A stretch of DNA of 64,000 nucleotides from Dehalococcoidia bacterium (lineage in GTDB: Bacteria; Chloroflexota; Dehalococcoidia; UBA2979), in NCBI GenBank assembly GCA_965262725.1, contig OZ253555.1, forward strand, positions 1,600,001 through 1,664,000. Reading direction: 5' to 3'. Made by a program: the position numbers and the translations under genes. The notes beneath the pieces are model-generated. The model did no database searches and was not told the DNA's origin. It saw only the letters and a program-made list of their open reading frames with translations. This document shows positions 33,716 to 53,963 of the stretch, piece by piece (position 1 is the stretch's first letter; every line of letters begins with the position of its first letter).

Positions 33716-34323
33716 TATGGAGAAGGCGCTGGCGCGAGCGAGCAGGGCGGCCGCCACGCGCCGGCGTCGAGGCTGGCCTGGAGCGCGGCGCGGCGCGGCG
33801 CGTTGTGATGTTCGGCGAGCTGCCGCGGGCCTCAGGGCTCGGCGAACGCGAACCCGAACGAGTACGCCCTGAGGGCGAGGCCGGGCACGGCCCGCGCGGC
33901 CATCACCGCGCGCGGTCAAAGGCTCCCGCGACCAGATGCCGCCGGCAACGATCGTCAGCCCGGGCTCGAGTTGGTCGATGTCTCGCGGAGCGCCCACAGG
34001 AGATCCCGCTCCAGTGCGAACGCGAACTCGCCGCCGTACTCCCCGGTGGCCGCGTGCCCGCCTGCGAACTGGGGATTGAGGATGGTGCGCAGTGACACCA
34101 CTTGCCGGGACGTGACCCACGACTCGCTGTCTGTATCATGCCGATGGGGCCCGGGCACAAGTCTGTTCGTTGCCTGTTGGCCCCATCGGCATGGGCGCTA
34201 CCTCGCATCTTTGCGGGGCCCTCACGCCGATCTCGAGTACGGCCGGCCGAGAGCCGGCTCCGGGGTGACCGGCTCGGACAGACGGCTCTCGTGTCCGGGG
34301 CGTCGGATGGGTTGTGCATCAGC

Positions 34324-34893
34324 GTGCCAGCATCCGTTGACCTCGACCGGCTTCTCAGATTCCGTCTCGCCGTGGGCCGCTTCGGCGAGATGGACGTCGC
34401 TCGCTGGTGGAACACGACGGGACTGCTCGGTCCGCGAGGGGCCACTGTTCTGTCGCGTGGTCTCCCTGCTACGCACTACTTCGCTCAGGCGCGAGTCGTC
34501 TTTGCCGTTGCGCATGCGCGCTGTGAGGAGGTGTTCAGTCCGCCGAGTGGCGCGATTACCCTGTGGGATCTTCCCGCAGAACTCGAGCAGCAGTTCGAGG
34601 AGCACTGGCAGACCTGGCTCGGCGAGGTGAACGACTGGCGTTCATTCTTCGAATCGCTCGCAGGACTCGGGGAAGCCGATCTCAGCGCCACGCTGGGGCA
34701 CGCGGCTTTCATCTTGCCTGAGCAGATGGAGGCCGCGGAGCGGCTCCGTCGATCGGCTGACGGTCGCGCTGTCCTCGTTCCCGCAGGTCGCGAAGTGGAC
34801 GATGATCTGATCTCACTGCTGGCATTGGGATTCGCGAAAGGGGTGCCCGGCCAGCTCGCCGTGCCGTATGCGAGCTTGGGCAATTCGACGTGA
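34324..34893 (+). CDS. brxE: BREX protein BrxE
   Basis: LRFRLAVGRFGEMDVARWWNT...THYFAQAR; first gene of the BREX operon. Start is estimated. Confidence 0.78.
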   Translation: MPASVDLDRLLRFRLAVGRFGEMDVARWWNTTGLLGPRGATVLSRGLPATHYFAQARVVFAVAHARCEEVFSPPSGAITLWDLPAELEQQFEEHWQTWLGEVNDWRSFFESLAGLGEADLSATLGHAAFILPEQMEAAERLRRSADGRAVLVPAGREVDDDLISLLALGFAKGVPGQLAVPYASLGNST

Positions 34894-35678
34894 ATGATCC
34901 CCGGGCATTCATCGTCTCCTCGTTCACGATCATCAAGGGATCACTGATCGACGAGACTTATTCTGCCTTTCGTGACTGGGACTTATCAGCCTCGAAGTCG
35001 GAGAACTTGCGGCGCCTCATGGCAACGAACACTATCGGCGCGCGCAGCGCCCACTGGCTCCGGGATGTGTCGTTCGTGGTGAGCCGCCGCTTCGATCCTG
35101 AGAATGGAGACCGTCCGCTCGTCGAACTCGCCCAGCGTGGCTGCTCGCGGGAGATGTGGAATCCGCTGTTGCTCTGGCACATGACGCGGCACGAGTTTCT
35201 CGTGCGAGATTTCCTCGTGTCGTGGCTGCACCCACGCTACGTCGAAGGCGTCTACAAAATCCGTCCACACGATCTCCTGGCATATCTTGCAGGGTTGCGG
35301 TCAATCGACGGGATCCAGGTCGCGGAACACTGGACCGACTCAACAACGGCAAGGGTTGCGTCCGGACTACTCCGCATTGCGGAGGACTTCGGGCTACTCA
35401 CTGGCGGTTCAGTGAAAGAGTTCATTCCCTACCATCTGCCCGAGACGAGCTTCCTCTATCTGCTGCATGCCATCGCGGACGCGGAGCGGAACCCGCGGCG
35501 GGTCATTGACGCGCTCGCCTGGCGCATGTACTTGATGAGTGCCGAGGACGTAGAGCGTGAGCTATTCCGGCTCCACCAGTTCCGCCGGCTGCGCTTTGAA
35601 GTCGCAGGTTCTCTCGCAGAGCTCGATCTTCCTTGCCGATCGGCCGCCGAATTCGCGGAGACGATGACGTGTGACTGA
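34890..35678 (+). CDS. brxA: BREX protein BrxA (DUF1819)
   Basis: WTDSTTARVASGLLRIAEDFGLL; position between brxE and brxB. Confidence 0.8.
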   Translation: MNDPRAFIVSSFTIIKGSLIDETYSAFRDWDLSASKSENLRRLMATNTIGARSAHWLRDVSFVVSRRFDPENGDRPLVELAQRGCSREMWNPLLLWHMTRHEFLVRDFLVSWLHPRYVEGVYKIRPHDLLAYLAGLRSIDGIQVAEHWTDSTTARVASGLLRIAEDFGLLTGGSVKEFIPYHLPETSFLYLLHAIADAERNPRRVIDALAWRMYLMSAEDVERELFRLHQFRRLRFEVAGSLAELDLPCRSAAEFAETMTCD

Positions 35679-36246
35679 CGTACGCGAGCGCCTGCACGCA
35701 CTGGAGGCCATTCTCAGGGCCGCTGACCCACGGCCTACGATCAGCGCCTACCACGACATGCCGTACGCGATCTTTCGCTACGACCCGACAGACGAATTCC
35801 TTCTCCGTCAGGAAGTCACGCTGCTCCGCACTCGTCTAGAGCAGGCGGGCAAGCGCGTCACGGTAATCTCGCTCGCCGAGTGCATGCATTCCGCACTGGA
35901 AGCGGAGGGTCTCGGCAGGGATGCGCTCGCCGACGCAGAGCGGTCGGTCGGGCTGGAAGCAGCGATTGACACGGTGCATGAGGTACTGAGCCAGTACCAA
36001 CCGCTCGACCGCCTCGTCGCCGGCCGCATCCCTGCGGATGCCGATCCGCTGATGGACATTGTTCTCATCGTGCGGGCAGGAGCTCTTTTCCCCGCCTATC
36101 GGACGTCGTCTCTGCTGGAACAGCTCAAGGGCCAAGTGATGGTCCCGGCGGTACTCTTCTACCCTGGGATCCTCGATGGTTCTGCTGGTTTGAAGTTCAT
36201 GGCGGTGCTGGACGCGGAGCACAATTATCGGCCGCGGATCTTCTGA
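35671..36246 (+). CDS. brxB: BREX protein BrxB (DUF1788)
   Basis: IFRYDP...GALFPAYRTSSLL...VLFYPG...NYR. Confidence 0.85.
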   Translation: MTDVRERLHALEAILRAADPRPTISAYHDMPYAIFRYDPTDEFLLRQEVTLLRTRLEQAGKRVTVISLAECMHSALEAEGLGRDALADAERSVGLEAAIDTVHEVLSQYQPLDRLVAGRIPADADPLMDIVLIVRAGALFPAYRTSSLLEQLKGQVMVPAVLFYPGILDGSAGLKFMAVLDAEHNYRPRIF

Positions 36247-36248
36247 GG

Positions 36249-39200
36249 ATGGCTGACATGACGACGAACGCGATCGGCGACCTGTTCGCTCAAGATGTTC
36301 ATCGGAACATCGAAGAGGTAATCAAGGTCGATCAGACCGACAAGCAGATCATTCGCGATGAGCTGAGCGAGTACGTCATTACTGACTCCATCCGCGAGCA
36401 CTTCACTGAGATCCTCGAGCGCTACTGGGAGACGCCTCAGAAACCGCACGAAGGGATCGGCGTCTGGGTTTCGGGCTTCTTCGGCTCCGGTAAGTCGAGC
36501 TTCGCGAAGTACCTCGGACTCGCGCTGGAGGACCGAAATGTGCTCGGTGAGGGCGCGGCCGAGCTGCTGGGCCGCCGCTCGACGGACGACAAACTGCGCG
36601 TCCTGCTCACGAACATCGCCGAGCATATTCCGACAGATGCCGTGATTTTTGATGTCTCGACCGATCGCGGTATTCGCACGGGCAATCAGACGATGACGGA
36701 GATCGTGTATCGCCAGCTGCTCGAGCGCCTAGGATACGCGCGTGATCTCGATCTCTCAGAGCTCGAGATCACGCTCGAGGGCGAGAATGGGCTCGATGAC
36801 TTTGAGGCGAAGTTCCAGGAGATTTTCGCGAAGGACTGGGATGTCGAGAAAGGCAAGGTAGCGCTCGCGGTTCAGCAGGCAAGCCGGGTGATGCACGAGC
36901 TCGACCCCTCGACGTACACCACGGTAGACAGTTGGCGGGAATCCGCGATGCGGCGCGCGGATGTCAGCGCGAACGCGCTTGCTGACCGTTGCGGGCAACT
37001 GATACAGCGTCGCCGGCCGGGCCGCAGTTTGGTCTTCGTTGTCGACGAGGTCGGACAGTTCGTCGCTCGGGACGTGCAGAAGATGCTCGACCTCCAGGGG
37101 GTCGTGCAGGCACTTGGGCGGGCGGGCCGGGGGAAGCTCTGGCTGATCGTGACCTCGCAGGAGAAGTTGAGCGAACTTGTCGGTGGGCTCGATGCTTCGC
37201 GCGTGGAGCTCGCGCGGCTGATGGACCGGTTCCCTCTGCAAGTGCACCTCGAGCCGTCGGACATCTCTGAAGTGACCAGTCGCCGCGTACTCGCGAAGAA
37301 CGCTGATGCCGAGCGGACGCTTCGCGAGTTGTTCGCTCAGCACCGTGGGAAGCTGAGCGAGAACACCCGTGTGTCAGCTGATGTGCGCCTGCCCGAGCTG
37401 AGCACTGAGTCCTTTAGCGATCTCTACCCGCTACTCCCGTACCAGATCGACTTGATCATCAGCGTGGTCTCTGGACTACGCACAGCAGGAGGCGCCAGCA
37501 AGCACGTGGGTGGCGCCAATCGCACGGTCATCAAGCTGGCGCAGCAGTTGCTCGTGCACCCGAATATCGACCTTGCTTCGCAGCCGGTCGGCGCGCTCGC
37601 GCGGATCGATCAGGTCTACGACCTGGTGTCGGCGAATATTCCCAGCGAGCTGCGGGGCAAGATTTCGGACATCGGTCGTGGCGTTGACCATCGGTTGTCT
37701 GAGCCGGTGGCAAAGGCGATCTGCCTTCTGCAGTACGTGCAGAGCGTTCACCGCACTCCAGAGAACATCGCTGCGACTCTCCACCCAGCGCTGGACGCGG
37801 ACTCCCGGCTGCCTGAGGTGTACGCGGCGCTTGAGGCGCTTGAGCGTGCACACATGGTGCGCCGCGGCGACGAGGGATACCGAATCCCCTCACCGGCCGA
37901 GGACGACTGGGAGCGACAGCGCGGCGGTTTCGCACCGCGCCCGGGGGATGTGCATCGGCTCCATGCTGAGGTCGTGACGGCGCTCTGGCAGCCGCAGCCG
38001 TCGCATCGATTGCTCGATGTCAGGCTCTTCAAGGCAGGGCTGAGCCTCGGCGGACGCGAACTCGTGCAGGGCGATATCACCTTCCACCTCACCCTCGCTG
38101 AAGGCGGGGGTGCGTACGACAGCGAGGTGGAGGCGGCGCGGACGCGTAGTCAGACCGAACCATCGACCGCGTTCTGGGTCGCCCCCCTGACCGAAGCCAT
38201 CGACCGCGAAACGGTTGAAATGTTCCGCTCGCGGGAGATTCTTTCCCGCAAGGAGCGGGATGCTCAGACAAAGGATGAGGCCCAGCTCGTTGCTGAGGAG
38301 CGCGTGCGAATGCGACGCCATCAGGATGAGCTGCGTCGCTTCTTCCGACAAGCGCTCGTCGGTGGCAGCATTTTCTTCCGTGGGAACGACCGTAGCCCCG
38401 GCGAAGCGGCTGAGGTCTTGAGCGCGGCCACGAACGTGCTGGCGCAGGCTCTTCCGCAGGTCTTCGACCGCTTCTCCGACGCCGCCGCGCGGGTGACTGC
38501 GAAGGATCTGGATTCGATCCTCACCAACGAGAATCTGAACGGTCTCGCACCCGTCTTCAGCACTTTGCACCTGGTCGGGGAGGAGGCAGGGAGGCCGGTC
38601 TTCAACACCGAGAGCGGTCCGCTCACGGAGATCCTCGGTCGCATTGAGAACCGCGCCAGCTACGGTGAAGTCGCCGACGGGCGCTACCTTGCGAATGAGC
38701 TGGCCAAGGAGCCGTACGGGTGGGAGTTCGACGCCGTCCGTTTGTTCGTTGCTGCGCTGCTGCGGGCCGGGAAGGTCACTATGACGAGCAAGGGGCAGAC
38801 CATCGAATCCGCCCTTTCGCTCGATGCCCGGACCACATTCAACAACAACAACCTGTTCCGCCAGGCCTCGGTCAGACCAAAGGTCGGTCTCGACTTCACG
38901 GAGATCGTCGATGCCTCCACGCACTTCAAGGAAGTGTTCGGCAACGACATCGCGGAGCTCGAGCAGAGCGCCGTCGCCCGGGCGATTCGGGAGGAGCTGC
39001 AGCGACACGAGCAGGAGTTGAGCGAAACTCACAGCCTCCTCGAGCGTCACGGGTTGCCGGGTGTTGCGATCCTGCGGGACGCGCTCGACCAGATGCGGGC
39101 GATTCGCCAGGGCCCTGAGGATCAAGCGATCCTTGCGTTCAGCGCCGCGTATCGCGAGCTGAAGGAGGCTATTAGACGGGCGGCAGAGCTAACGCAAACA

Positions 39201-39794
39201 CTGTCGAAGCCGCGGCTGCTCGACCTCCAACGTGCGGCAACGGCCCTCGGGCCTACGTGGCGATTTCTCCAGCGGGAGGTTGACCTGCCTGAGGACTGTC
39301 GCGAGCAGGCAGCGCTGCTTGAGGACTTAATGGGCAGAGAGACATTCTTTCGTGAGCTGCCCGCGATCGACCAGAGCACGCGTGTGCTTGAGTCCGAGTT
39401 CGAGGGACGGCACGCCGCCGCGGTCGAGGCACGCGTCGCCGCATACAGCAGCGCAATGGAGCAGCTTCGTGCAACGCCTGTCTGGGACGCGCTGCACCCC
39501 GACCAGCAGACACGTATCTCAGAGCCGCTGCTGGTCCGTTCGAGAAGAGATGGATGCGAGACCGAGACAGTTCCCATGCTGCGAGAGCAGACCGACGCGT
39601 GCTCGGCGCTACTCGGCCGGACGATCGAGGAAGTGCTTCGGCTCGTCGATGGGAACCGCGTCGTGCCGTTGCCTGCCTCAAGCTACTTTGCGGGAGGCAT
39701 CGAGACCGAGGAGCAACTGGATCAAGCGCTAGCCGGCCTGCGCGAGCGATGCCTCGAGTTGATCGGGGCGGGTAAGAAAGTGCTGGTTCAGTAG
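36249..39794 (+). CDS. brxC: BREX P-loop ATPase BrxC
   Basis: IEEVIKVDQ, VWVSGFFGSGKS, VDEVGQF, VTSQE, YPLLPYQ. Confidence 0.93.
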   Translation: MADMTTNAIGDLFAQDVHRNIEEVIKVDQTDKQIIRDELSEYVITDSIREHFTEILERYWETPQKPHEGIGVWVSGFFGSGKSSFAKYLGLALEDRNVLGEGAAELLGRRSTDDKLRVLLTNIAEHIPTDAVIFDVSTDRGIRTGNQTMTEIVYRQLLERLGYARDLDLSELEITLEGENGLDDFEAKFQEIFAKDWDVEKGKVALAVQQASRVMHELDPSTYTTVDSWRESAMRRADVSANALADRCGQLIQRRRPGRSLVFVVDEVGQFVARDVQKMLDLQGVVQALGRAGRGKLWLIVTSQEKLSELVGGLDASRVELARLMDRFPLQVHLEPSDISEVTSRRVLAKNADAERTLRELFAQHRGKLSENTRVSADVRLPELSTESFSDLYPLLPYQIDLIISVVSGLRTAGGASKHVGGANRTVIKLAQQLLVHPNIDLASQPVGALARIDQVYDLVSANIPSELRGKISDIGRGVDHRLSEPVAKAICLLQYVQSVHRTPENIAATLHPALDADSRLPEVYAALEALERAHMVRRGDEGYRIPSPAEDDWERQRGGFAPRPGDVHRLHAEVVTALWQPQPSHRLLDVRLFKAGLSLGGRELVQGDITFHLTLAEGGGAYDSEVEAARTRSQTEPSTAFWVAPLTEAIDRETVEMFRSREILSRKERDAQTKDEAQLVAEERVRMRRHQDELRRFFRQALVGGSIFFRGNDRSPGEAAEVLSAATNVLAQALPQVFDRFSDAAARVTAKDLDSILTNENLNGLAPVFSTLHLVGEEAGRPVFNTESGPLTEILGRIENRASYGEVADGRYLANELAKEPYGWEFDAVRLFVAALLRAGKVTMTSKGQTIESALSLDARTTFNNNNLFRQASVRPKVGLDFTEIVDASTHFKEVFGNDIAELEQSAVARAIREELQRHEQELSETHSLLERHGLPGVAILRDALDQMRAIRQGPEDQAILAFSAAYRELKEAIRRAAELTQTLSKPRLLDLQRAATALGPTWRFLQREVDLPEDCREQAALLEDLMGRETFFRELPAIDQSTRVLESEFEGRHAAAVEARVAAYSSAMEQLRATPVWDALHPDQQTRISEPLLVRSRRDGCETETVPMLREQTDACSALLGRTIEEVLRLVDGNRVVPLPASSYFAGGIETEEQLDQALAGLRERCLELIGAGKKVLVQ

Positions 39795-39805
39795 GGCGGG
39801 GCAGC

Positions 39806-41719
39806 GTGGACAAGGACGTTCGGAATCGCATTCAGCGCGCGACGCAGGAGGTCCGTGCGCTGCTCGAGCGCGAGTTCGGCGAGCAGCTCGAGGGGCTCTT
39901 CGACATCCGAAGGAACGGCGTAATCGCCCCCGAAGCCGGTCCCCATCTCACGCCCAGGGAACGATTGTTGCGGGCGAAACTGATCGCGTCAGTCGAGCAC
40001 TTTCGCTCCGGTGGTGCTTCGCCGAGCGAGGCGGTCGCCCGCTATCAGCGCGACGCGGCATTCACAACGCTCAACCGCTTTGTCGCATTGAAGATGCTAG
40101 AGGCGAGGCAGCTGCTTCAAGAGTGTGTCTCGCGGGGAGACCAGTCCGCCGGCTTTCGGGAGTTCGTAGGTCTGGCGCCTAGCCTCGCGCAGATGCCCGA
40201 CCATGGCTACCGGCTCTACATCGAGAGCATCTTTGATGAGATTGGCCGAGAAGTTGGCGTGCTCTTCGACCGCCGCGATCCTGCGAGTCTGCTCTGGCCG
40301 CGCCGGAATACGCTACGGGAGCTGCTGGCAACGTTGAACGCCGCAGACCTAGCCGATGTCTGGGCGCAAGACGAGACGATCGGCTGGGTCTACCAGTTCT
40401 TCAACTCCGGTGACGAGCGCCGACAGATGCGCGACGAAAGCCAGGCGCCGCGGAACAGTCGCGAGCTGGCCGTCCGCAATCAGTTCTTCACGCCTCGCTA
40501 CGTGGTCCAGTTCCTTACCGACAACACGCTCGGACGCACTTGGTACCAGATGCGGTCAGGCGACACGGCCCTGGCGGACCGTTGGGAGTACTTCGTCGGC
40601 GACGAGGGGGTCGCGGTGCCCCGCGATAAGAAGGATCCCCGCGATATCAAGGTCCTCGATCCCGCATGTGGTTCGGGCCACTTCCTGCTATACGCGTTCG
40701 ATCTGCTGCTCGACATATACGAAGAGGCGTGGAGCGATCCTCAACAGCCGCGTAGCGAGGCCGGCACGACGCTGCGAGAGGATTACGAGGATGTGCCTTC
40801 GCTGCGTCGATCCCTCCCTGCGCTGATCGTCCAGCACAACCTCCACGGCGTAGAGATCGACCCGCGTGCGGCGCAGATCACGGCGTTGGCGCTCTGGTTG
40901 CGAGCGCAGCGCGCCTACAAAGAGTTCGGCGTCACCCCGACCCAGCGTATGCCGATCACTCAGACACACATCGTGATTGCCGAACCGATGCCAGGCGACC
41001 ATGGCATGGTCGACGACTTTGCGGCAGGCCTTGAGCCGGCCCTGTTGCGCGACCTCTTCCGGAAGATGGTTGGGGAGATGACTCTCGCAGGGGGACTTGG
41101 GTCGCTCCTCCAGGTAGAGCGCGCGATCGCAGCGGAGCTCCACCGCGCCCGGGAACAGTTCGTGAGGGAGCGCTCTGAGACGAAACCGAGCCTGCCCGGG
41201 TTGGAGCCCGAGCGACGACAAGGGGAGCTCGATCTATCCGGCGTCGACGACGATGCATTCTTTCATGAGGCAGAAACTCTCATCGTTGATGCGCTGCGTA
41301 GGTTCGCCGAGTCCACGACAGGCGGGGCAGGCGTTCGTCGACGCCTCTTCGCGGGTGACGCCGCACAGGGTGTCGCCCTCATCGAGCTGCTGCGGACGCG
41401 GTTTGACGTGGTGCTCATGAATCCGCCGTTCGGGGCTGGGAGCGTCATCGCGAAGCAGGCATTCGATAAGGCTTACCCGCGCACGAAGAACGATCTCTAT
41501 GCGGCCTTCGTCGAGCGCGGCATCCAACTGCTCCATGAGCGCGGAATGCTCGGCGCCATCACGTCCCGCACCGGGTTCTTCCTGTCAAGCTTCCAGAAGT
41601 GGCGCGAGGAGATCCTCCTGGAGGAGGCTCCCCCGACGGTGTTCGCGGACCTCGGCTACGGCGTGCTTGATGGCGCGATGGTCGAGGTCGCTGCGTATTG
41701 CCTCGAGGTCGCTGCATGA
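39806..41719 (+). CDS. pglX: PglX N-terminal part: adenine methyltransferase catalytic subunit
   Basis: IGWVYQFF, QFFTPRYVV, LDPACGSGHF, NPPF, DLYAAF. The ORF ends before the target recognition domain (TRD). Confidence 0.9.
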   Translation: MDKDVRNRIQRATQEVRALLEREFGEQLEGLFDIRRNGVIAPEAGPHLTPRERLLRAKLIASVEHFRSGGASPSEAVARYQRDAAFTTLNRFVALKMLEARQLLQECVSRGDQSAGFREFVGLAPSLAQMPDHGYRLYIESIFDEIGREVGVLFDRRDPASLLWPRRNTLRELLATLNAADLADVWAQDETIGWVYQFFNSGDERRQMRDESQAPRNSRELAVRNQFFTPRYVVQFLTDNTLGRTWYQMRSGDTALADRWEYFVGDEGVAVPRDKKDPRDIKVLDPACGSGHFLLYAFDLLLDIYEEAWSDPQQPRSEAGTTLREDYEDVPSLRRSLPALIVQHNLHGVEIDPRAAQITALALWLRAQRAYKEFGVTPTQRMPITQTHIVIAEPMPGDHGMVDDFAAGLEPALLRDLFRKMVGEMTLAGGLGSLLQVERAIAAELHRAREQFVRERSETKPSLPGLEPERRQGELDLSGVDDDAFFHEAETLIVDALRRFAESTTGGAGVRRRLFAGDAAQGVALIELLRTRFDVVLMNPPFGAGSVIAKQAFDKAYPRTKNDLYAAFVERGIQLLHERGMLGAITSRTGFFLSSFQKWREEILLEEAPPTVFADLGYGVLDGAMVEVAAYCLEVAA

Positions 41720-43881
41720 GGACCGTCTTTTTGCGCGCATTGGAGTCCGATGACAAAGCGTCGGCTCTGCTTGGAGCGATCCGCGGATCAGCCTCGGAGC
41801 GAGGTGGACGTTTCGATGTGCAGGCGGCCGCGTTCGGGCGCGTGCCGCGTTCACCATTCGCGTATTGGGTAAGCGATCGTCTGCGCACTGTCTTTGCCGA
41901 CCTCCCACCTTTCGAGGCGGACGGGCGTGTCGTGAAACAAGGCCTTGCGACTGCCGACGACTTCCGGTTCGTGCGCGCGTGGTGGGCTGTTCCGGTACGC
42001 GTCTTGGGTTTGCGGTGGTTCCCGTACACAAAAGGCGGGAGCTTCTCGCGTTTCTACGCCGACACCCATGTGCTCGTGAACTGGCACCGCAGTGGGGCTG
42101 AAGTGAAGGCGAACGTCAACGAACGCGGGCAGATTCGCTCGAACGTCTGGATGCTTCGGGATACCGCGGCCGAATACTTCTTTCGTCCAGGCATCACCTG
42201 GCCGCTCCGGGGGGTTCGCTACTCAGCTCAGGCCGTTCCCGCGGAATGCGTGTTCAGCGTCGCAGGTAAGATGGCCTTTGCTGATCCCGCTGATCTTCTT
42301 TGCGTGCTTGCACTATTCAATTCGACTGCCTTCGACAAGTTCATCGCGTTTTTTGCTGGGAAGATCGGTGGGGTGCAGTATGAGGTCGGCCTTATCAAGT
42401 ACGTGCCGATCCCGCTCCTGAGTGCCGATGATGAGCGCTGTCTAGCCACACTCGCCAGCCGCGGTTGGTCGATGAAACGCTCGCTGGACTCGGCTGTTGA
42501 AAGCTCGCACGCCTTCATAGCCCCCGCGCTTGTGCGGGTTGAGGGTGCCCCGCTGAATGCTCGCGCGGTAGCGTGGGCTGAGCACATTCACCTTGTAGAA
42601 GACGCGCTTGCGGGGATACAGGCGGAGATCGACGAGCGCTGCTTCGAGCTCTACGGCATTGATGAGGCTGATCGGCGCGCCATGACGGAAGGCTTCGACA
42701 CCTCGGGCGACGCTGCAGAGGATGATGACGCCGAGGTCGACAACTCAGCCGCCGAAGCCGAGGATGCGGATAGCGCCGAAGCCGACGCGACCGGTCTGAC
42801 CGCAGAGCTGGTGTCGTGGGCGGTGGGGGTGGCCTTCGGGCGCTTCGATGTGCGGCTCGCTACTGGCGAGCGGGCACTTCCGGCGGAGCCTGATCCGTTC
42901 GACCCGCTGCCGATCTGCTCACCCGGGATGCTCACTGGCGACGACGGCCTGCCGCTCCGCGCGGCGCCTGAGGGCTACCCACTCGCCTTTTCCGAGGATG
43001 GCGTCCTCGTCGACGACCCAGGCCACGCGCGCGATCTCACCGCCGCGGTACGCGCCATCTTCGACACGGTGTTCGGTGCCGACGCCGACGCCCGCTGGCG
43101 TGAGGCGGCCGAGCTCCTCGATCCAAAGGAGCGCAACCTGCGCAGCTGGCTCGCGAAGGCCTTCTTCGAGCATCACCTCAAGCGCTACTCGAAGAGCAGG
43201 CGGAAGGCGCCGATCATCTGGCAGCTCGCCACGCCGTCGGCGAGCTATTCGGTCTGGCTCTACGCGCACCGCCTGACAGCGGACAGCCTCTTCCACGTCC
43301 AGAACGACGTCGTCGCGCCGAAGCTTGCGCTCGAGGAGCGCCGACATACAGCGCTCGTGCAGGCCGCTGGTCCGAACCCGCCTGCGAGCCAGCGCCGAGA
43401 GATCGCCGAGGTGGAGACGTTTGTCGAGGAGTTGCGAGTCCTGCTCACTGAAGTGAGGCGGGTGGCGCCGCTCTGGCAGCCCGACCTCAACGACGGGGTC
43501 GTGCTCACGATGGCGCCGCTCTGGCGTCTCGTGACCCAACATCGGGCGTGGCAGCGGGAGCTGAAGTCGGCCTGGGATGCGCTCTGCGCCGGGAGGTACG
43601 ACTGGGCGCAGAGCGCAATGCACCTCTGGCCTGAGCGCGTCGTGCCGAAGTGCGCCGAGGATCGCAGCCTCGCGATCGCGCACGGCCTGGAGGAAGTCTT
43701 CTGGGTCGAGGATGCGACCGGGAAATGGGAACCGCGACATTCGCCAACGCGCTCGGTCGAGGAGCTCGTCAGTGAGCGGACGTCACCTGCCGTGAAGTCA
43801 GCGCTGCAGAGCCTGGTCGATGCACCCGCACTCGCTTCCAATGGGCGGGGGCGACGTTCTCGAGCGGGGTCGTCGACGTGA
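41716..43881 (+). CDS. PglX C-terminal/specificity subunit 1 (TRD1)
   Basis: PRSPFAYW, QGLATADDFRF, WFPYTKGG, RPGITW, RKAPIIWQL, DLNDGV, YDW; ATGA overlap with pglX. Confidence 0.88.
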   Translation: MRTVFLRALESDDKASALLGAIRGSASERGGRFDVQAAAFGRVPRSPFAYWVSDRLRTVFADLPPFEADGRVVKQGLATADDFRFVRAWWAVPVRVLGLRWFPYTKGGSFSRFYADTHVLVNWHRSGAEVKANVNERGQIRSNVWMLRDTAAEYFFRPGITWPLRGVRYSAQAVPAECVFSVAGKMAFADPADLLCVLALFNSTAFDKFIAFFAGKIGGVQYEVGLIKYVPIPLLSADDERCLATLASRGWSMKRSLDSAVESSHAFIAPALVRVEGAPLNARAVAWAEHIHLVEDALAGIQAEIDERCFELYGIDEADRRAMTEGFDTSGDAAEDDDAEVDNSAAEAEDADSAEADATGLTAELVSWAVGVAFGRFDVRLATGERALPAEPDPFDPLPICSPGMLTGDDGLPLRAAPEGYPLAFSEDGVLVDDPGHARDLTAAVRAIFDTVFGADADARWREAAELLDPKERNLRSWLAKAFFEHHLKRYSKSRRKAPIIWQLATPSASYSVWLYAHRLTADSLFHVQNDVVAPKLALEERRHTALVQAAGPNPPASQRREIAEVETFVEELRVLLTEVRRVAPLWQPDLNDGVVLTMAPLWRLVTQHRAWQRELKSAWDALCAGRYDWAQSAMHLWPERVVPKCAEDRSLAIAHGLEEVFWVEDATGKWEPRHSPTRSVEELVSERTSPAVKSALQSLVDAPALASNGRGRRSRAGSST

Positions 43882-46038
43882 AGACCGTCTTCCTCCGCGT
43901 GCTAGAGGCGCGGGACAAGGGCCCGGCTCTGCTCGGAGCCATCCGCCGACCGGGAGCCTCCGGAGCAGGTCGGCGATTCGAGGTCTCCGTTGCGAGTTTT
44001 GGCGGGGTGCCTCGGTCTCCTCTTGCCTACTGGGTGAGTTCGAGGGTGCTCAGCCTGTTCGCGGACCTGCCACGCCTCCAAGCAAATGGGCGTGTCGCTG
44101 CATCGGGCGGCAAGACCCTCGACGACTTTAGGTGGATCCGCGGATCGTGGGAGATCGTTCCTGAGGCGGTGGACCGATGGCTTGGCTACGCCAAGGGCGG
44201 CACCTTCTCACCCTACTACGCTGACGTTCACCTCCTGCTTGACTGGCGCGATGACGCGAGGGCGCTGAAGACTTACTTGGTCAACTACCGCGAGAGTCGG
44301 GGGTGGTCACCTAACTGGACGGCCGAGTTGCATGGCAGCGACCATTATCGCCGGCCTGGACTGACCTGGCCCAGACGCACGCAGAGTGGGCTCGCGCTTC
44401 GGGCGATGCCGGCCGGGTGTGTGTTCGCGGACAAGGGTCCAGCTGCGTTCGTTGCGAACGACTGTGGCAGCCGCCTACTGGCGCTTCTGGCAGTTTCGAA
44501 CTCCATGGCTTTCAAGTCGCTTGTCGAGCTCCAAATGGCATTCGGGTCGTTTGAGGTTGGCGTCATCCAGCGCGCCCCTGTTCCCCTCACTGTTGGTGGC
44601 GATGAGAGCGGGCTCACACAACTGGCTTACCGTGCGTGGTCGTCGAAGCGCTCCTTGGACACAGTCGTCGAGACGTCGCACGCCTTCACGCTTCCTGCGC
44701 TACTCCAGTCCGAAGGCGGCTCGCTCGCTGGTCGCGCGGCAGCGCGGGCTGAGCACGTGCGCCGCATCGAAGACGAGCTTGCGGCCATCCAGGCGGAGAT
44801 CGACGAGCGCTGCTTCGAGCTCTATGGGATCAACGAGGAGGACCGCCGCGTCATCACCGAGGGCTTCGGCGGCTCGGGCGACGCCTCGGTAAGTGACGAC
44901 GGCGACGGCGACGGCGAATCAGACGATGCCGGGGCTGCGCAGGATGGGGTAGCTGAGGCGGTTGGCCTGACGGCGGAGTTGGCGGCGTGGGCGGTGGGTG
45001 TGGCATTCGGGCGCTTCGATGTGCGGCTCGCCACGGGGGAGCGAGCGCTCCCGGACGAGCCCGAGCCGTTCGACCCGCTACCGGTCTGCTCACCCGGGAT
45101 GCTTACCGGTGACGACGGCCTGCCGCTCACTGCGGCGCCCGAGGGCTACCCGCTCGCCCTCCCGGAGGATGGCATCTTCGTGGACGACCCCGGCCATACG
45201 CGGGATCACACCGCCGCAGTGCGAGCGGTCTTCGACGTCGTGTTCGGAGGCGACGCCGATGCGCGCTGGCGTGAGGCGGCGGAGCTCTTCGATCCGAAGG
45301 AGCGCAGCCTGCGCACCTGGCTCGCGAAGGCCTTCTTCGAGCATCACCTCAAGCGCTACTCGAAGAGCAGGCGGAAGGCGCCGATCATCTGGCAGCTCGC
45401 CACGCCGTCGGCGAGCTATTCGGTCTGGCTCTACGCGCACCGCCTGACAGCGGACAGCCTCTTCCACGTCCAGAACGACGTCGTCGCGCCGAAGCTTGCG
45501 CTCGAGGAGCGCCGACATACAGCGCTCGTGCAGGCCGCTGGTCCGAACCCGACTGCGAGCCAGCGCCGAGAGATCGCCGAGGTGGAGACGTTTGTCGAGG
45601 AGTTGCGAGTCCTGCTCACTGAAGTGAGGCGGGTGGCGCCGCTCTGGCAGCCCGACCTCAACGACGGGGTCGTGCTCACGATGGCGCCGCTCTGGCGTCT
45701 CGTGACCCAACATCGGGCGTGGCAGCGGGAGCTGAAGTCGGCCTGGGATGCGCTCTGCGCCGGGAGGTACGACTGGGCGCAGCTCGCAATGCACCTCTGG
45801 CCCGAGCGCGTCGTGCCGAAGTGCGCCGAGGACCGCAGCCTCGCGATCGCCCATGGTCTCGAGGAGGTCTTCTGGGTCGAGGACGCGAACGGGAAGTGGG
45901 AACCGCGACATTCGCCAACGCGCTCGGTGGAGGAGCTCGTCAGTGAGCGGACGTCACCTGCCGTGAAGTCAGCGCTGCAGAGCCTGGTCGATGCACCCGC
46001 ACTCGCTTCCAATGGGCGGGGGCGACGTTCTCGAGCGG
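42620..46038 (+). repeat. About 1.25-kb direct repeat pair (about 42620-43867 and about 44790-46038)
   Basis: The C-terminal halves of the two specificity genes. 43147-43867 and 45318-46038 are near-identical at an offset of 2171. Confidence 0.92.
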
Positions 46039-46061
46039 CGTCGACACTGGGGGCGGATTAG
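43878..46061 (+). CDS. PglX C-terminal/specificity subunit 2 (TRD2)
   Basis: Paralogue of the previous gene with a divergent TRD (SGGKTLDDFRW, YAKGG, RPGLTW); GTGA overlap. Confidence 0.88.
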   Translation: MKTVFLRVLEARDKGPALLGAIRRPGASGAGRRFEVSVASFGGVPRSPLAYWVSSRVLSLFADLPRLQANGRVAASGGKTLDDFRWIRGSWEIVPEAVDRWLGYAKGGTFSPYYADVHLLLDWRDDARALKTYLVNYRESRGWSPNWTAELHGSDHYRRPGLTWPRRTQSGLALRAMPAGCVFADKGPAAFVANDCGSRLLALLAVSNSMAFKSLVELQMAFGSFEVGVIQRAPVPLTVGGDESGLTQLAYRAWSSKRSLDTVVETSHAFTLPALLQSEGGSLAGRAAARAEHVRRIEDELAAIQAEIDERCFELYGINEEDRRVITEGFGGSGDASVSDDGDGDGESDDAGAAQDGVAEAVGLTAELAAWAVGVAFGRFDVRLATGERALPDEPEPFDPLPVCSPGMLTGDDGLPLTAAPEGYPLALPEDGIFVDDPGHTRDHTAAVRAVFDVVFGGDADARWREAAELFDPKERSLRTWLAKAFFEHHLKRYSKSRRKAPIIWQLATPSASYSVWLYAHRLTADSLFHVQNDVVAPKLALEERRHTALVQAAGPNPTASQRREIAEVETFVEELRVLLTEVRRVAPLWQPDLNDGVVLTMAPLWRLVTQHRAWQRELKSAWDALCAGRYDWAQLAMHLWPERVVPKCAEDRSLAIAHGLEEVFWVEDANGKWEPRHSPTRSVEELVSERTSPAVKSALQSLVDAPALASNGRGRRSRAASTLGAD

Positions 46062-46062
46062 C

Positions 46063-48600
46063 TTGCACGCACTCCACGACTACCTCTGTCAGCAGCTCGA
46101 GGATCTGCTCCGCAAGCGTTCGGTCGTCGTCTTCTACGACCCTCGCCGGGAGTTCGCACCCTTCTTCCGTGAGTTGAGCGACGGTGGCTCAGAGGCTGGG
46201 CAGCTCCGGCACGTTGTCATCGGTTCACTGCCGGCAGCACTCGTGGAGTACAACGGCTCGTTCTACCAACTTCGCGCTGAGGTTGAGGAGCTGGTGGGGG
46301 AGGATCGACCGGCGCCGCTCATGCTCTACGTCCCTGGCGTCAATCGAGACCCGAAGAACTCCGTACTCATGGAACTCGAGCTCGGCGGCAGCCGTTACGA
46401 GCAGCCGCTCAACCGTCTCGCGCTCAACGTTCTCCGCAAGAGCTTCTCCGACGGACAGATCGATGAACTGCTCCGCCTGGGAAGCACGACTTACGAGGAC
46501 ATCGTGTCGTTCCTCCAGCAGGCTGAGGAAGGCGAACCCGCGTCGGCGCTCCGCGGGCTCTTTGGAGGCCTCCGTAGCGAGCCGCTCATCGCCGAGTGGC
46601 TCGCAAGTGTCGAGCGCGACGATGCGATTTCCGAAAGGGATGCGACTTCTGAGCTGTTCAAGTTGCTCGAGACCCGCGTGGGCCTGGCCCTCACCGAGGC
46701 GTCATCGCTCAGCGAAGCGCGGGAGCGGGCGGCACGGTACGTGCTCATTGGTGAGTTCCGGGCCGACCTCTCTGGAGAGCCTCCCCCGTCGATCTCGCTC
46801 GTCCCAGTCCCCCAGTCGAAGGAGCACCAGGCGCGCATCGCCGAGATAGCTCGCCTGCTTCGCCGTGACCGGCCAGACCGGTATGCCGCACTGGCAGACA
46901 GGGTGGAGCGAGAGCTGGGACTTCAGGATGCGCCCATCGCGCCCTCTCAGCTCGGTGCCGTGGACACGTTCGGATTCGAGGAGAGACGTCTGCTTGAGCG
47001 CGTCGGTGAGCTCATCGCGACCAAGGCATATGGCGAAGCCCTGGACGTGATCTCGGGCCGTCGACGCAGCTTCTGGGTGGACCGCGATGTGCCACGCCAG
47101 GCGCAGTGGGAGGCCAGCCGCCTCATGGCGACCTTGGGCACTGCAATTGCTGCGGCTCGTGTAGAGCTTCCGAAGTTTGGGGTCGATGCGACGGCGTGGG
47201 TCGAGGCGTATGCCGCCGACCGCGGCTGGCATGAGATCGACCGGCTGCACCGTGCGCTTGAGACCTGGGTCGCGAAGATGAGCGAGGAGCCCGAGAGCGA
47301 ACAGGCGTTGGCGGTCATCCGTCGCGAGCAAGAGGACCTGCTTCAGCTGATGGCGGAAGGATTCGGGAAGGCCTTCCAAGCAGCTGGCTGGACGGTTCCG
47401 AACATCCTTCACCAGACGGGCATCTATCCGCAGGTCGTGGAGTCGCTGCCGGGCCCGGTCGCTTACTTCTTCGTCGATGCAATGCGTTTCGAGATGGGCG
47501 CCGAGCTGGCGCAGCAGCTCCAGGGCGCAAGCGACCTCAGGCTGCGGCCCGCCATCGCGGCGCTCCCGTCGATTACGCCGGTCGGCATGGCCGCGCTCCT
47601 GCCGGGCGCATCGGCGAGCTTTTCGGTCGTGGAGGGGCGTGGGCGAATCGCCTCCCGCATGAACGGCACCGCAATGCCAGGCATCACTGAGCGTATGAGG
47701 TACTTGAAGGCGCGGGTTGTTGGTCTCCGCGAGCTGACGCTGGACGACGTTCTGCGTCGCCGGATGCCCGAGCTTCGTCGGAGCGTCGATTCCGCGCCAC
47801 TGGTGATCGTTCGTTCGGACGAGATCGACGCGCTCGGGGAGAACGTGCAGGACTCCACTGCGCGAGCCGCCATGGAGAGTGTAATCGGCAACATTGCTCG
47901 GGCCGTACGAAAGCTGGCCGCCGCCGGCATCGAGCGGTTCGTGATCACGGCCGATCACGGGCACCAGTTCGCCATCCGCAAAGAAGAAGATATGCGTACG
48001 GACAATCCGGGCGGCGACGCTCTCGAGGTTCACCGCCGTTGTTGGATCGGGCGTGGTGGAACCACGCCGCCGGGCACCGTCCGGGTGACCGGAGCGGAGC
48101 TCGGCTATGACACCGACCTCGAGTTCGTCTTCCCGACCGGGCTCGGTGTCTTCAAGGCTGGCGGCGGCCTCAGCTTCCATCACGGCGGGTTCAGCCTCCA
48201 AGAACTGGTGATCCCAGTCGTCAGCCTCCGCATTGCAGCAGAACCGGTGAAGCCGCAAGGCGGCCAGCGGGTTCGTCTCGAAGACGTCCCTGCGCGCATC
48301 ACGAATCGGATGTTCGTTGTCCAGGTCGTTTCAAGCGCCGACCTCTTCGATACGGAGCCGCTGTCGCTCCGGGTCGTCTTGCTCTCGGGAGACGAACAGG
48401 TCGGCCAAGCAGGCATGGCGACTGGGGCGGAACTCGATAACGTAAAGAGCGAACTGCAGCTCGCGCCCGGGACGGCTGCCAGCGTGGGTATGATGCTCAT
48501 GCGCGATGACATCACTTCGCTGCGCATCCTAGTCCAAGACGCCGTCACCGATGCAGTGCTCGAGCAGTCGGAATCCATCCCGGTGCAATTAGGGATATAG
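46063..48600 (+). CDS. pglZ: BREX alkaline-phosphatase-fold protein PglZ
   Basis: VDAMRFEMG, LPSITPVGMAALLP, ITADHGH, HGGFSLQE; TTG start. Confidence 0.93.
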   Translation: MHALHDYLCQQLEDLLRKRSVVVFYDPRREFAPFFRELSDGGSEAGQLRHVVIGSLPAALVEYNGSFYQLRAEVEELVGEDRPAPLMLYVPGVNRDPKNSVLMELELGGSRYEQPLNRLALNVLRKSFSDGQIDELLRLGSTTYEDIVSFLQQAEEGEPASALRGLFGGLRSEPLIAEWLASVERDDAISERDATSELFKLLETRVGLALTEASSLSEARERAARYVLIGEFRADLSGEPPPSISLVPVPQSKEHQARIAEIARLLRRDRPDRYAALADRVERELGLQDAPIAPSQLGAVDTFGFEERRLLERVGELIATKAYGEALDVISGRRRSFWVDRDVPRQAQWEASRLMATLGTAIAAARVELPKFGVDATAWVEAYAADRGWHEIDRLHRALETWVAKMSEEPESEQALAVIRREQEDLLQLMAEGFGKAFQAAGWTVPNILHQTGIYPQVVESLPGPVAYFFVDAMRFEMGAELAQQLQGASDLRLRPAIAALPSITPVGMAALLPGASASFSVVEGRGRIASRMNGTAMPGITERMRYLKARVVGLRELTLDDVLRRRMPELRRSVDSAPLVIVRSDEIDALGENVQDSTARAAMESVIGNIARAVRKLAAAGIERFVITADHGHQFAIRKEEDMRTDNPGGDALEVHRRCWIGRGGTTPPGTVRVTGAELGYDTDLEFVFPTGLGVFKAGGGLSFHHGGFSLQELVIPVVSLRIAAEPVKPQGGQRVRLEDVPARITNRMFVVQVVSSADLFDTEPLSLRVVLLSGDEQVGQAGMATGAELDNVKSELQLAPGTAASVGMMLMRDDITSLRILVQDAVTDAVLEQSESIPVQLGI

Positions 48601-48603
48601 GCC

Positions 48604-50646
48604 ATGATCAACGTGCAGGCTCCCGCCCGCGACGCGCTAGACGACAAGGTCAACCGCATCTTTGCCGGAAAGGCCGTGAGAAAGGACCTCGTCCGCAAGG
48701 TCAAGGTCGGTGCCAACGTTCCCGTCTTTGTTCTGGAGTACCTGCTCGGGAAGTACTGCGCTTCCTCGGACGAGATGGCAATCCAGATGGGGTTGCAGGT
48801 CGTCAACAACACTCTCGCCGAGAACTACATCAGGCCCGACGAAGCGCAGCGTGCTCAGAGCAAGGTAAAGGAGCTGGGGCGCCACACGTTCATCGATAAG
48901 GTGAAAGTGCGCTTGACGGACTCCGAGTACTGGGCTGAGGTGACGAATTTCGGTCACCGCTTTGTCCACATCCCTGACCACTACGTTCGTGATTTCGATC
49001 GCCTGCTCACCGGTGGTATCTGGGCGCAGATCGACATGCGGTTCGAGTATGACGAGGAATCGCGGGGCAAGAACCCGTTCTGGATTGAGAAGCTCACGCC
49101 GATCCAGCTCGCTACATTCGATCTTGATGAGTACCGCGGGCTGCGTGCCGAGTTCACCACTGACGAGTGGCTGGACCTCATGGTCCGGAGCATGGGCTAC
49201 GAGCCGTCGATCATGGATCGGAGACTGAAGCTCCTCTTCCTGCTCCGCCTCATCCCACTGTGCGAACGCAACTACAACTTGGTCGAGCTTGGTCCCAGGG
49301 GAACCGGTAAGAGTTACGCGATTCAGGAGTTCTCACCCTACGCGGCTCTGCTGACGGGGCCGACGACGGTCGCCAATCTCTTTGGCCATATGAGCGGCAG
49401 GCAGAAGGGTATGGTCATGATCTGGGACGTCGTCGGCTTCGACGAGGTCGGGGATCTCCAGAAGATGCCGAAGGAAGTGATCACCACGCTCAAGACCTAC
49501 TGTGAGTCTGGTCAGTTCCAGCGTGGGCAAGAGGCGATGGCGGGCTACGCCAGTATCGCCATGTTCGGGAACACTCAGCAACCGGTAGACGTGATGGTCC
49601 AGACCGGGCACCTCTTCGCACCGCTGCCCGAGGTGATCCGAGATGACATGGCATTCATCGACCGCATGCACTTCTACCTCCCGGGGTGGGAAGTGCCAAA
49701 GATGCGCAACGAGCACTTCACGGACCATTACGGATTCGTTGTCGACTACCTCGCGGAGGCGCTTCGCGAGCTGCGCAAGCTGAACTACACTGAGACTCTC
49801 GATCACGCTTTCTCGCTCGGCTCCCACTTGAACGCTCGCGACCGCAAGGCGGTTCGTCATACCGTCGCCGGTCTCGTGAAGATCCTGCATCCCAACGGCG
49901 ACGTGTCGAAGGACGACATGGAGGAGATCGCTGCGCTGGCGCTCGAAGGTCGTCGGCGAGTCAAGGAACAGCTCAAGAAGATGGGTTCCTTCGAATATCA
50001 CCAGACTTCGTTCAGCTACATCGACAACGAGTCCGGTGAAGAACACTTCGTTGGTGTACCCGAGCAAGGTGGTCGCGATCTCATCTCCCCGGACCCGCTC
50101 GCACCGGGCACGATCTACGCGGCTTCCGTGACAAACGACGGAACAGTCGGTCTGTATCGGGTGGAAGTCACAACGTCCAACGGAACGGGGAAGCTGCGCC
50201 CGGCGGGAGCACTGCGGGGGCTCGTGAGAGAGTCCGTCCAGCGTGCGTTCGGCTACCTGCAGTCGAATCAGACTTCGTTTGGCGTGGCGAGCGCACTCGA
50301 CGGTTCAGACCTCCACGTCGAAGTCGTTGATCTGCTGGGCAATCGCGCCGATGCAGAGATCGGGGTCGCGTTCTTCATCGCCGCCTACTCAATCTTGCGG
50401 CGGAGCGCCCCACTCCCGGCGCTACTCGTTCTCGGTGATCTCAGCATCCAGGGGAACATCAAGCCGGTGACGTCGCTCGTTGAACCATTGCGACTCGCGA
50501 TGGACAACGGTGCGAAGCGCGCACTGATCCCGATCGAGAATAAGCGCCACTTCTTCGACGTTCCTGCGGACATCCTCGAGATGGTAGATCCGGTTTTCTA
50601 CGGCGATATGCGAACGGCTGCCTTCAAGGCCTTGGACCTGGGCTGA
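48604..50646 (+). CDS. brxL: BREX Lon-like AAA protein BrxL
   Basis: NVPVFVLEYLLGKYC, ELGPRGTGKS, FDEV, and a Lon-like C-terminal domain. Confidence 0.93.
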   Translation: MINVQAPARDALDDKVNRIFAGKAVRKDLVRKVKVGANVPVFVLEYLLGKYCASSDEMAIQMGLQVVNNTLAENYIRPDEAQRAQSKVKELGRHTFIDKVKVRLTDSEYWAEVTNFGHRFVHIPDHYVRDFDRLLTGGIWAQIDMRFEYDEESRGKNPFWIEKLTPIQLATFDLDEYRGLRAEFTTDEWLDLMVRSMGYEPSIMDRRLKLLFLLRLIPLCERNYNLVELGPRGTGKSYAIQEFSPYAALLTGPTTVANLFGHMSGRQKGMVMIWDVVGFDEVGDLQKMPKEVITTLKTYCESGQFQRGQEAMAGYASIAMFGNTQQPVDVMVQTGHLFAPLPEVIRDDMAFIDRMHFYLPGWEVPKMRNEHFTDHYGFVVDYLAEALRELRKLNYTETLDHAFSLGSHLNARDRKAVRHTVAGLVKILHPNGDVSKDDMEEIAALALEGRRRVKEQLKKMGSFEYHQTSFSYIDNESGEEHFVGVPEQGGRDLISPDPLAPGTIYAASVTNDGTVGLYRVEVTTSNGTGKLRPAGALRGLVRESVQRAFGYLQSNQTSFGVASALDGSDLHVEVVDLLGNRADAEIGVAFFIAAYSILRRSAPLPALLVLGDLSIQGNIKPVTSLVEPLRLAMDNGAKRALIPIENKRHFFDVPADILEMVDPVFYGDMRTAAFKALDLG

Positions 50647-52343: not shown

Positions 52344-52726
52344 ACCGTCACACCAGAGAGCTTTCTCATGATCGCGTCGATCTGCCACGGGATCGGCGCA
52401 ACTCCGAGTTCCTCGAGAGCGGCGGGGAATCGCTGTATGTCATCCCTCAGCCACACCGCGATCACGTCATTCCCGAGTTCCGCGCTCTTGCGGACTTCCC
52501 AGTTCACGGCATCACTGCGGTAGGTGTTCTTTCCGACGAGGCAGATGGTCGCAGAGCACATCCGCAGCAATCTCTCAACGTTCGCCCTCCAAGCGTTTTC
52601 AAATGACTCTTTCACCGCGTAGTCGCGGCATTCGAGGTCGAAGGGGCTGCTCACCACTTGCTCTCGAAAGGTGTTCGAGAGTGGCTGATCCTCCATCGCG
52701 AAGCTGAGGAATACGTTTAGCGTCAT
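52340..52726 (-). CDS. TIR domain protein (DUF1863/ThsB-like) 3
   Basis: VFLSF, TICLVG, SDAVNWEV with the catalytic Glu. Confidence 0.85.
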   Translation of the reverse strand: MTLNVFLSFAMEDQPLSNTFREQVVSSPFDLECRDYAVKESFENAWRANVERLLRMCSATICLVGKNTYRSDAVNWEVRKSAELGNDVIAVWLRDDIQRFPAALEELGVAPIPWQIDAIMRKLSGVTV

Positions 52727-52811
52727 GGGATACTCCTCTCCGCACGTCCGGCGCCCGAGGCAGCACGATCACACCGGATCTACGTCGCGAGACGCGTCGT
52801 AGCGATAGACC

Positions 52812-53909: not shown

Positions 53910-53963
53910 GTGCACCTCCTTCAATGTCGCCGCGTTGGCCGCGAGGCGCTGATGCTAGCAGCC

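Follow-up and report, generated by a model that had tools for sequence, protein, structure and literature searches.

We analysed a window of 64,000 nucleotides from a Dehalococcoidia bacterium (assembly GCA_965262725.1, contig OZ253555.1, positions 1,600,001 to 1,664,000). It contains a complete, closely packed type 1 bacteriophage exclusion (BREX) operon on the plus strand (window positions 34102-50646; list of open reading frames (ORFs) with Pfam, PADLOC and NCBIfam matches), in which PglX is encoded in two pieces and the second piece is present twice. The N-terminal half, here called XN, is followed by two complete C-terminal halves, XC1 and XC2, which carry different target recognition domains (TRDs) (Table 1). 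From the sequence, we give roughly even credence to the reading that both XCs share the single XN and that one BREX machine would thereby recognise two motifs. Such parallel use is the best explanation of the locus, because a single XN is accompanied by two intact and apparently coupled XCs, and because both XCs are under purifying selection, both contain the putative docking segment and their TRDs belong to different lineages.

As a preliminary description of this DNA had stated, the methylase ORF ends after its catalytic domain. XN consists of a helical bundle and an N6-adenine methyltransferase domain in which motif I (DPACGSGHF) and motif IV (NPPF) are both present; it is matched by the Pfam families Eco57I (E-value 7.8e-19) and MmeI_Mtase (6.9e-10), and in the PDB it matches BrxX 9EWZ (2.7e-34). 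It fills positions 1-639 of the 640 of the PADLOC model PDLC02526, the N-terminal half-model, and also matches positions 3-657 of the 1332 of the fused model PDLC02527, while the 682 positions of PDLC02532 are covered from 2 to 680 by XC1 and from 2 to 678 by XC2. Each gene thus matches one half-model over its full length, as is proper to a two-gene PglX lineage, and XN and XC together represent the two halves of PDLC02527. In the NCBIfam model NF033452 (BREX_1_MTaseX), XN scored 399.2 bits (positions 4-609), XC1 272.2 bits and XC2 238.8 bits (both at about 651-1209). A single-chain PglX would be one polypeptide of at least 500 bits; here every piece fell below that cut-off and stop codons lie between the pieces. 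Automatic annotation would therefore yield a short methylase and unnamed genes (41716-46061).

The XC proteins are made up of a docking segment, the TRD, a spacer and finally the C-terminal region. In alignment with Salmonella PglX 8C45, the counterpart of XC1 residues 45-241 is the TRD region (649-852), and that of residues 431-606 is 1016-1205. In Salmonella PglX, the TRD comprises residues 662-849, the spacer helices 850-960 and the C-terminal region 961-1225, and the mutations that change specificity lie at 684-838 (PMC11341690). Neither XC1 nor XC2 matched any Pfam family, Methylase_S included, and no hsdR or hsdM was found in the operon by Pfam and PADLOC scans. An HsdS subunit would combine a Methylase_S fold and two TRDs with HsdM and HsdR partners; the best PDB relatives of XC are PglX/BrxX chains. 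Therefore, the HsdM/HsdS-like division of labour that had been proposed holds in so far as the catalytic chain is separate from the chain with the TRD and C-terminal region, and one XN stands beside two XCs, but XC itself is not an HsdS.

Both XC genes are intact, and each retains all family-invariant columns in two family alignments. The junctions, read in the DNA, are gctgcATGAgg between XN and XC1 (overlap at 41716-41719) and cgacGTGAag between XC1 and XC2 (43878-43881), which bears out the 4-nt stop/start overlaps previously noted; both are of the type expected for translational coupling, and a GAGG stands 7 nt 5' of the XC1 ATG. The description of two 727-aa paralogues was correct for XC2, which has this length from its GTG, but XC1 measures 721 aa from the overlapping ATG (MRTVFLR) and reaches 727 aa only if it is started at the upstream TTG at 41698. 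The N-terminal consensus of the family is MKTVFLRxLEAEDKAxALLxAIR. The shared scaffold motifs were likewise found in both copies, as PRSPFAYW in XC1 and PRSPLAYW in XC2, KGG in both, and RPGITWP and RPGLTWP, respectively. The genome, a single 3.67-Mb contig, contains exactly two XC copies and one XN; a further, weak match to XN residues 257-365 (G000:C1:1464681-1464950, E 9e-4) lies inside a 1113-aa open frame and probably belongs to an unrelated large methyltransferase.

The doubling was checked with Logan contigs, which are built independently of the assembly and were placed on 41500-46200 for four runs. A contig of 982 nt, bridging the end of XC1 to the start of XC2, spans 43838-44819 with 0 differences in runs X1, X3 and X5, of which X1 and X3 are one sample and X5 comes from another study. 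A second contig of 2199 nt runs from XN into XC1, and another leads out of the 3' repeat that both copies share and enters pglZ. For the common 466-nt tract there is just one contig, whose depth is about double that of the adjacent ones (73.5 vs 34-45, 25.5 vs 13-15 and 3.4 vs 2), which is a hint only, contig depths being coarse. Since the junction of XC1 end and XC2 start is present in neither single-copy variant, an assembler cannot make it from two single-copy strains. The genome does seem to have been assembled as one contig with a completeness that is only modest (91.55%), and data of this kind often contain strain variants; even so, a mis-assembly of two strain variants, or a sequencing frameshift behind the split, is hardly credible given the junction seen in two studies, the repeat depth, the 115 of 139 informative related loci in which the split with one XC also occurs (see below) and the recurrence of tandem XC pairs in other genomes. 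The system was found in 0 of 40 genomes related to the host, apart from a short fragment in G020.

XC1 and XC2 are 70% identical in amino acids overall, but this value hides a mosaic. The previously reported contrast between a divergent N-terminal and a near-identical C-terminal part was reproduced, with 40-41% identity in residues 41-240 (TRD), 62% in 241-340, 84% in 366-480 and 98% in 481-721. Synonymous divergence by the Nei-Gojobori method (NG86) was saturated in the TRD (pS 0.75) and reached 0.93 in residues 241-340, 0.49 in 366-480, 0.009 in 481-640 and 0.17 in 641-721. Segments of such different ages within a single pair argue for recombination and not for faster protein evolution of the TRD. 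The near-identical C-terminal parts thus indicate gene conversion, and the 466-nt tract, with its one mismatch, would be both the conversion tract and a substrate for homologous recombination; homogenisation of this region may be favoured, since it must fit the same partners. In the four segments that allowed a measurement, the ratio of nonsynonymous to synonymous divergence (dN/dS, NG86) was 0.24, 0.27, 0.18 and 0.17, so that both XCs are under purifying selection.

Trees were computed for 59 XC proteins, namely XC1, XC2, the two copies of locus L051 (L051a and L051b), L037a and 54 of the 57 proteins P0004-P0060, the other three being left out because their length was outside 650-760 aa; a quick IQ-TREE search under LG+G4 was used, with support from the Shimodaira-Hasegawa-like approximate likelihood ratio test (SH-aLRT) only. 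With the TRD columns, XC1 grouped with P0006, P0013 and P0008, and XC2 belonged to another clade, which had 10 rows and a support of 98, together with P0039, P0054, P0015, P0014 and L037a. The TRD of XC1 is 68% identical to that of P0013, a protein from another source, versus 41% to that of XC2. With the C-terminal columns, in contrast, XC1 and XC2 were sisters (SH-aLRT 95), as were P0004 and P0015 (97), L051a and L051b (97), and P0014, P0021 and P0041 (100); the same incongruence between the two trees was seen for L051a/b and P0004/P0015. In the approximately unbiased (AU) test on TRD columns, a clade of XC1 and XC2 was rejected (delta lnL 100.9, p 0.0035), and so was one of P0004 and P0015 (p 0.024). 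These tests were chosen after the tree had been seen, sisterhood of the paralogues being the natural prior hypothesis. Because synonymous sites are saturated and the TRDs fall into different clades, the two TRDs are not recent duplicates.

A complex of XN 230-637 with XC2 1-340, the copy modelled, was predicted with author-built alignments. It reached an ipSAE of 0.82 in 3 of 3 runs, with 0.34 for the best control, and such a pass speaks for compatibility of fold and not for binding. This mark was attained by 58 of 80 solved complexes and by 2 of 110 mismatched pairs, counts that apply here only approximately because the alignments were author-built. At least 90% of the contacts agreed between runs and the partner pLDDT was at least 82. 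In the model, residues 3-9 of XC2 pair with XN 609-617, and the helix 14-22 packs on XN 230-236 and 261-264. By NCBIfam positions, the counterpart of the N-terminal 35-45 XC residues in single-chain PglX is the last part of the methyltransferase domain together with the hinge. Ten of the 12 interface positions within XC2 residues 3-22 are identical in XC1 (pairwise alignment). Of the complex modelling of the methylase with each subunit, as suggested in the preliminary description, this covers XC2.

The number of XC genes was surveyed in homologous loci, as had also been suggested. A genome scan with one genome per species gave 486 stretches encoding relatives and a scan of JGI metagenomes gave 158 relatives; the best 80 loci of each were kept, every ORF of at least 150 aa was compared by BLASTP with the BREX proteins of the window, and a locus was considered informative if it shows the XN side. 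Among the genome loci, 11 of 80 were short of the XN side and the other 69 comprised 56 split loci with one XC, 10 with a fused gene only and 3 with two XC-bearing ORFs. The metagenome loci behaved similarly (10 of 80 short of the XN side; of the other 70, 59 split with one XC, 7 fused only and 4 with two). Counted among the 59 is L152, rejected as a two-XC locus because its single XC is frameshifted near residue 505. Both scans together gave 139 informative loci, 115 of them split with one XC, 17 fused only and 7 with a second XC-bearing gene; none had three. These results indicate that the split is the usual state in this lineage, already covered by the separate half-models PDLC02526 and PDLC02532 of PADLOC-DB 2023, and the claim that the split is a new system had to be dropped. 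What is rare is the doubling of the recognition gene, the two-piece PglX itself being common. For the idea that specificities are gained by adding cassettes, the 7 doubled loci, with 0 of 139 carrying three XC genes, provide limited support.

According to the record titles, related loci span Acidobacteriota, Actinomycetota, Pseudomonadota, Myxococcota, Planctomycetota, Cyanobacteriota, Chloroflexota and others. When XC1 was used as query in a word-indexed protein search, 2584 proteins among 8000 scored reached E <= 1e-10; the best 120 relatives are mostly of about 720 aa, and those with a name are called hypothetical protein. In at least 17 related loci (L139:5902-8735, L129:5030-9745, L021, L022, L024, L028, L035, L044, L076, L104, L119, L131, L133, L135, L136, L143 and L146), 3.2-5.3 kb of other genes separate XN from XC, which implies that XN and XC are independent cistrons. 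The gap holds a ParA/MinD-like ATPase and an unannotated protein of 510-549 aa, to which a longer version adds an AAA_21 ATPase and a DUF4276 protein; it resembles a cargo slot between the pglX halves. Another observation concerns L032, a metagenome-assembled genome of Planctomycetota, where split and single-chain PglX occur within one operon.

Three of the doubled loci (L051, L090 and L098) have two intact XC genes 3' of XN, with 37-55% identity between the TRDs and 61-66% between the C-terminal parts. Judged by these values, the pairs are old, and yet neither gene has lost its open frame. The 4-nt start/stop overlap between the XC genes was also present in L051 (ATGA) and L098 (TTGA).

Taken together, we infer that both XCs are expressed, that both may bind XN, as the model suggests for XC2, and that two motifs would be recognised. 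XC1 and XC2 would each dock on XN through the same N-terminal beta-strand and helix, giving two XN:XC holoenzymes that serve the same BrxA/B/C-PglZ-BrxL machinery. Host methylation and phage exclusion would then take place at two different asymmetric motifs simultaneously, and the identical C-terminal tract could act as a recombination handle by which TRD cassettes are lost, swapped or homogenised.

Several observations weigh against this reading. XC2 starts with GTG behind a weak Shine-Dalgarno sequence, the two XCs must compete for one pool of XN, and the 466-nt identical direct repeat eases recombinational loss of one cassette. The high score of the XN/XC2 model may be recall of the intramolecular packing in the solved PglX/BrxX structures (8C45, 9EWZ); since these single-chain structures are solved, the model shows that the split fits the fold, not that the proteins bind. 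In run X6, from another organism and another study, XC2-like contigs about 98% identical to the TRD-to-spacer region were found (window 44339-45713; 16 differences and a 6-nt gap relative to XC2 over 826 nt), and the XC1 TRD appeared only as 40-nt pieces, although contigs cannot show absence; this is a weak hint that relatives may carry one cassette, the XC2 allele alone. Moreover, a second XC-bearing gene is rare and in part of the loci damaged or oddly placed, for which reason the doubled layout could often be transient. In L037 (12184-14297), the second XC lies in two frames, residues 5-66 and then 70-694, being frameshifted or mis-sequenced, and its C-terminal part is 91-100% identical to that of the first copy (100% and 91%). 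In L095 (23-2284), an extra full-length XC stands about 600 nt upstream of brxC besides the usual XN-XC pair, with C-terminal parts that are 89-92% identical (89% and 92%). The second copy of L113 is cut by the contig end, and L032 (8184-15864) contains XN, XC and a complete fused pglX between brxC and pglZ.

The main rival to parallel use, although we regard it as rather unlikely, is that the locus was caught during replacement of its TRD: a second XC allele would have been gained by recombination or horizontal transfer, so that only one XC matters for defence and the other is surplus and removable via the C-terminal tract. The rarity of the layout (7 of 139 informative loci), the frameshifted copy of L037, the XC2-like allele of X6 with no sign of the XC1 TRD, and the position of the operon in an island of lower GC adjoining two transposases would all fit, and the single mismatch in the 466-nt tract speaks for very recent exchange between the copies. 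However, both copies are intact, with all invariant columns kept and a dN/dS of 0.17-0.27, and the identical arrangement was found in two studies. The exact 4-nt coupling is seen in three independent pairs, and L051, L090 and L098 keep both copies intact despite C-terminal identities of 61-66%, which means that pairs can persist long.

The other explanations, like the artefact discussed above, rank lower. That the directly repeated cassettes serve recombination-driven switching, with conversion or unequal crossing-over reshuffling or removing TRDs in the population, seems quite improbable, and it could also add to co-expression. It would give phase-variation-like diversity without an invertase, as the mosaic of synonymous divergence (0.009, 0.17, 0.49, 0.93 and saturated) allows; homogenised C-terminal regions within one genome recur in L037 and L095, and programmed variation of pglX by inversion is known (PMC9881135). 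Yet no ORF among those tested was recognised as a site-specific recombinase, and an inverted partial copy was not found either; inverted repeats at the locus amount to two weak pairs, of which one is a palindrome that both copies contain. Crossover between direct repeats yields only loss or gain and no reversible switch, and no deletion joint between the copies was seen in the contigs of four runs, which is weak evidence, as contigs drop rare variants. Less probable still is a joint complex in which XC1 and XC2, perhaps in the manner of half-HsdS subunits, pair by the helices of their spacer and C-terminal parts, with one bipartite site being read by two TRDs and two XN. The PglX spacer helices are described as mimicking dimerised HsdS spacers (PMC11341690) and identity is maintained in the C-terminal regions expected to form the pair, but a single XC suffices in 115 of 139 informative loci and single-chain PglX/BrxX was reported to act as a monomer (PMC12839542).

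As shown in Table 1, the six genes of a type 1 system (brxA, brxB, brxC, pglX, pglZ and brxL) were all identified by Pfam and PADLOC on one strand (34890-50646). The BrxE-family gene that precedes them had no Pfam or PADLOC match. The pglZ frame is open from 45991, and its start is probably the TTG at 46063. The operon has a GC content of 0.60-0.65 versus 0.72 in the upstream flank. It follows two transposase genes (30158-31300, DDE_3 with HTH domains, and 31340-32350, DDE_Tnp_1 with DUF772), and a tRNA-Ala lies at 27870-27948. Downstream of brxL, on the minus strand (51810-56410), matches to 8xMP, ThsB-like TIR, TCAD9/receiver/APH and HATPase_c were obtained, possibly additional members of this island with roles in defence or signalling. 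The surroundings look like a defence island.

Table 1. Genes of the BREX operon and the tract shared by XC1 and XC2 (window coordinates).
Feature	Position	Strand	Evidence and remarks
BrxE-family gene, operon gene 1	34102..34893	+	NCBIfam NF033447 BrxE_fam 132.5 bits, cut-off 40
brxA	34890..35678	+	Pfam BrxA 8.3e-17; PADLOC PDLC02454 2.3e-85
brxB	35671..36246	+	Pfam BrxB 8e-16; PADLOC PDLC02459 3.2e-53
brxC (pglY), ATPase, 1181 aa	36249..39794	+	PADLOC PDLC02476 1669 bits, 1-1180/1180 model positions
XN, PglX N-terminal half, 637 aa	39806..41719	+	PADLOC PDLC02526 1018 bits; Pfam Eco57I, MmeI_Mtase
XC1, PglX C-terminal half, 721 aa	41716..43881	+	PADLOC PDLC02532 4.4e-244
Shared tract, copy 1 (in XC1)	43146..43611	+	466 nt, one mismatch vs copy 2 (pairwise DNA alignment)
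XC2, second PglX C-terminal half with other TRD, 727 aa	43878..46061	+	PADLOC PDLC02532 1.3e-202
Shared tract, copy 2 (in XC2)	45317..45782	+	466 nt, one mismatch vs copy 1
pglZ	46063..48600	+	PADLOC PDLC02559 3.3e-273, match from residue 25 of the ORF opening at 45991
brxL (Lon-like)	48604..50646	+	Pfam BrxL_ATPase 2.6e-123, BrxL_N, Lon_C

To our knowledge, structural and engineering work so far has dealt with single-chain PglX enzymes only. A natural, separate recognition half offers a ready-made system to swap BREX specificity, and loci with two XCs provide a test of whether one BREX machine serves two motifs. The split lineage also gives a view of how specificity is acquired without a lethal intermediate. 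For annotation, XC is without a Pfam family and appears as 'hypothetical protein', so such loci can mimic a truncated pglX. PglX is described as the sole BREX specificity factor, for host methylation as well as phage targeting, and its C-terminal domain alone could not be expressed (PMC11341690). More broadly, and with somewhat less than even confidence, we propose that BREX specificity in a large environmental lineage resides in a subunit that can be detached and exchanged horizontally: XC would dock by strand complementation on a constant methyltransferase, its conserved C-terminal region would be both the adaptor to the BREX machinery and the handle for TRD swaps, and two subunits could be stacked to give two self/non-self codes per BREX machine.

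We found no published description of a break before the TRD in the literature covered, which took in PMC12839542 and PMC11341690 but not their supplements, where split PglX may be listed; in the main text of the former, a BREX survey of 2026, the word 'split' occurs 0 times. The system shares with the single-chain PglX/BrxX of Salmonella (8C45/8Q56) and E. coli (9EWZ/8ZEK) the order of domains (helical bundle, gamma-class N6-adenine methyltransferase, TRD, spacer, C-terminal region) and the operon context brxA-brxB-brxC-pglX-pglZ-brxL, and XN and XC align to the halves of those chains. It differs in having two proteins and two XC genes. The break lies about 40 residues before the hinge, which is placed at 654-659 in PMC11341690, so that XC opens with a strand and a helix that, in the model, pack into the methyltransferase domain.

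Variation of pglX by inversion is described in Lacticaseibacillus rhamnosus and in Brevibacterium casei, where PglX is split after the variable region (PMC9881135). As in our locus, exchange affects the variable TRD and leaves the constant parts in place, and B. casei has a natural two-protein PglX, the one published split that we found; its break, however, follows the variable region (N-terminus and middle, then C-terminus), and inverted partial copies and a recombinase are present (same source). Here, the break precedes the TRD and both copies are complete and in direct orientation. A phase-variable pglX shufflon is defined by an inverted partial copy and an adjacent recombinase; the locus has no inverted copy, and no tyrosine or serine recombinase was found among the flanking ORFs tested (two transposases and other genes), which agrees with the earlier statement that the arrangement differs from shuffling by inversion or truncated copies. 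Truncated inverted pglX copies were reportedly described by Goldfarb in 2015.

The sequence pattern is also that of domain-restricted concerted evolution of tandem paralogues, in which recognition parts diverge or are replaced and the shared part is homogenised by gene conversion; this is a general process and not a defence mechanism, and it explains the pattern but is silent on function. The functional likeness is to Type I restriction-modification, where several HsdS can share one HsdM/HsdR, as with plasmid-borne hsdS in Lactococcus. In both cases, catalysis and an exchangeable specificity reside in separate subunits, several specificity subunits can serve one enzyme, and TRDs are shuffled against conserved regions through recombination. 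In contrast to Type I systems, XC lacks a match to Methylase_S or any other Pfam family and has one TRD instead of two, there is no HsdR-type motor-nuclease, and, as in BREX, methylation would be expected on one strand of a short asymmetric site. If the proposal for this lineage is true, BREX specificity would be modular like that of Type I systems and would have become so by an independent route.

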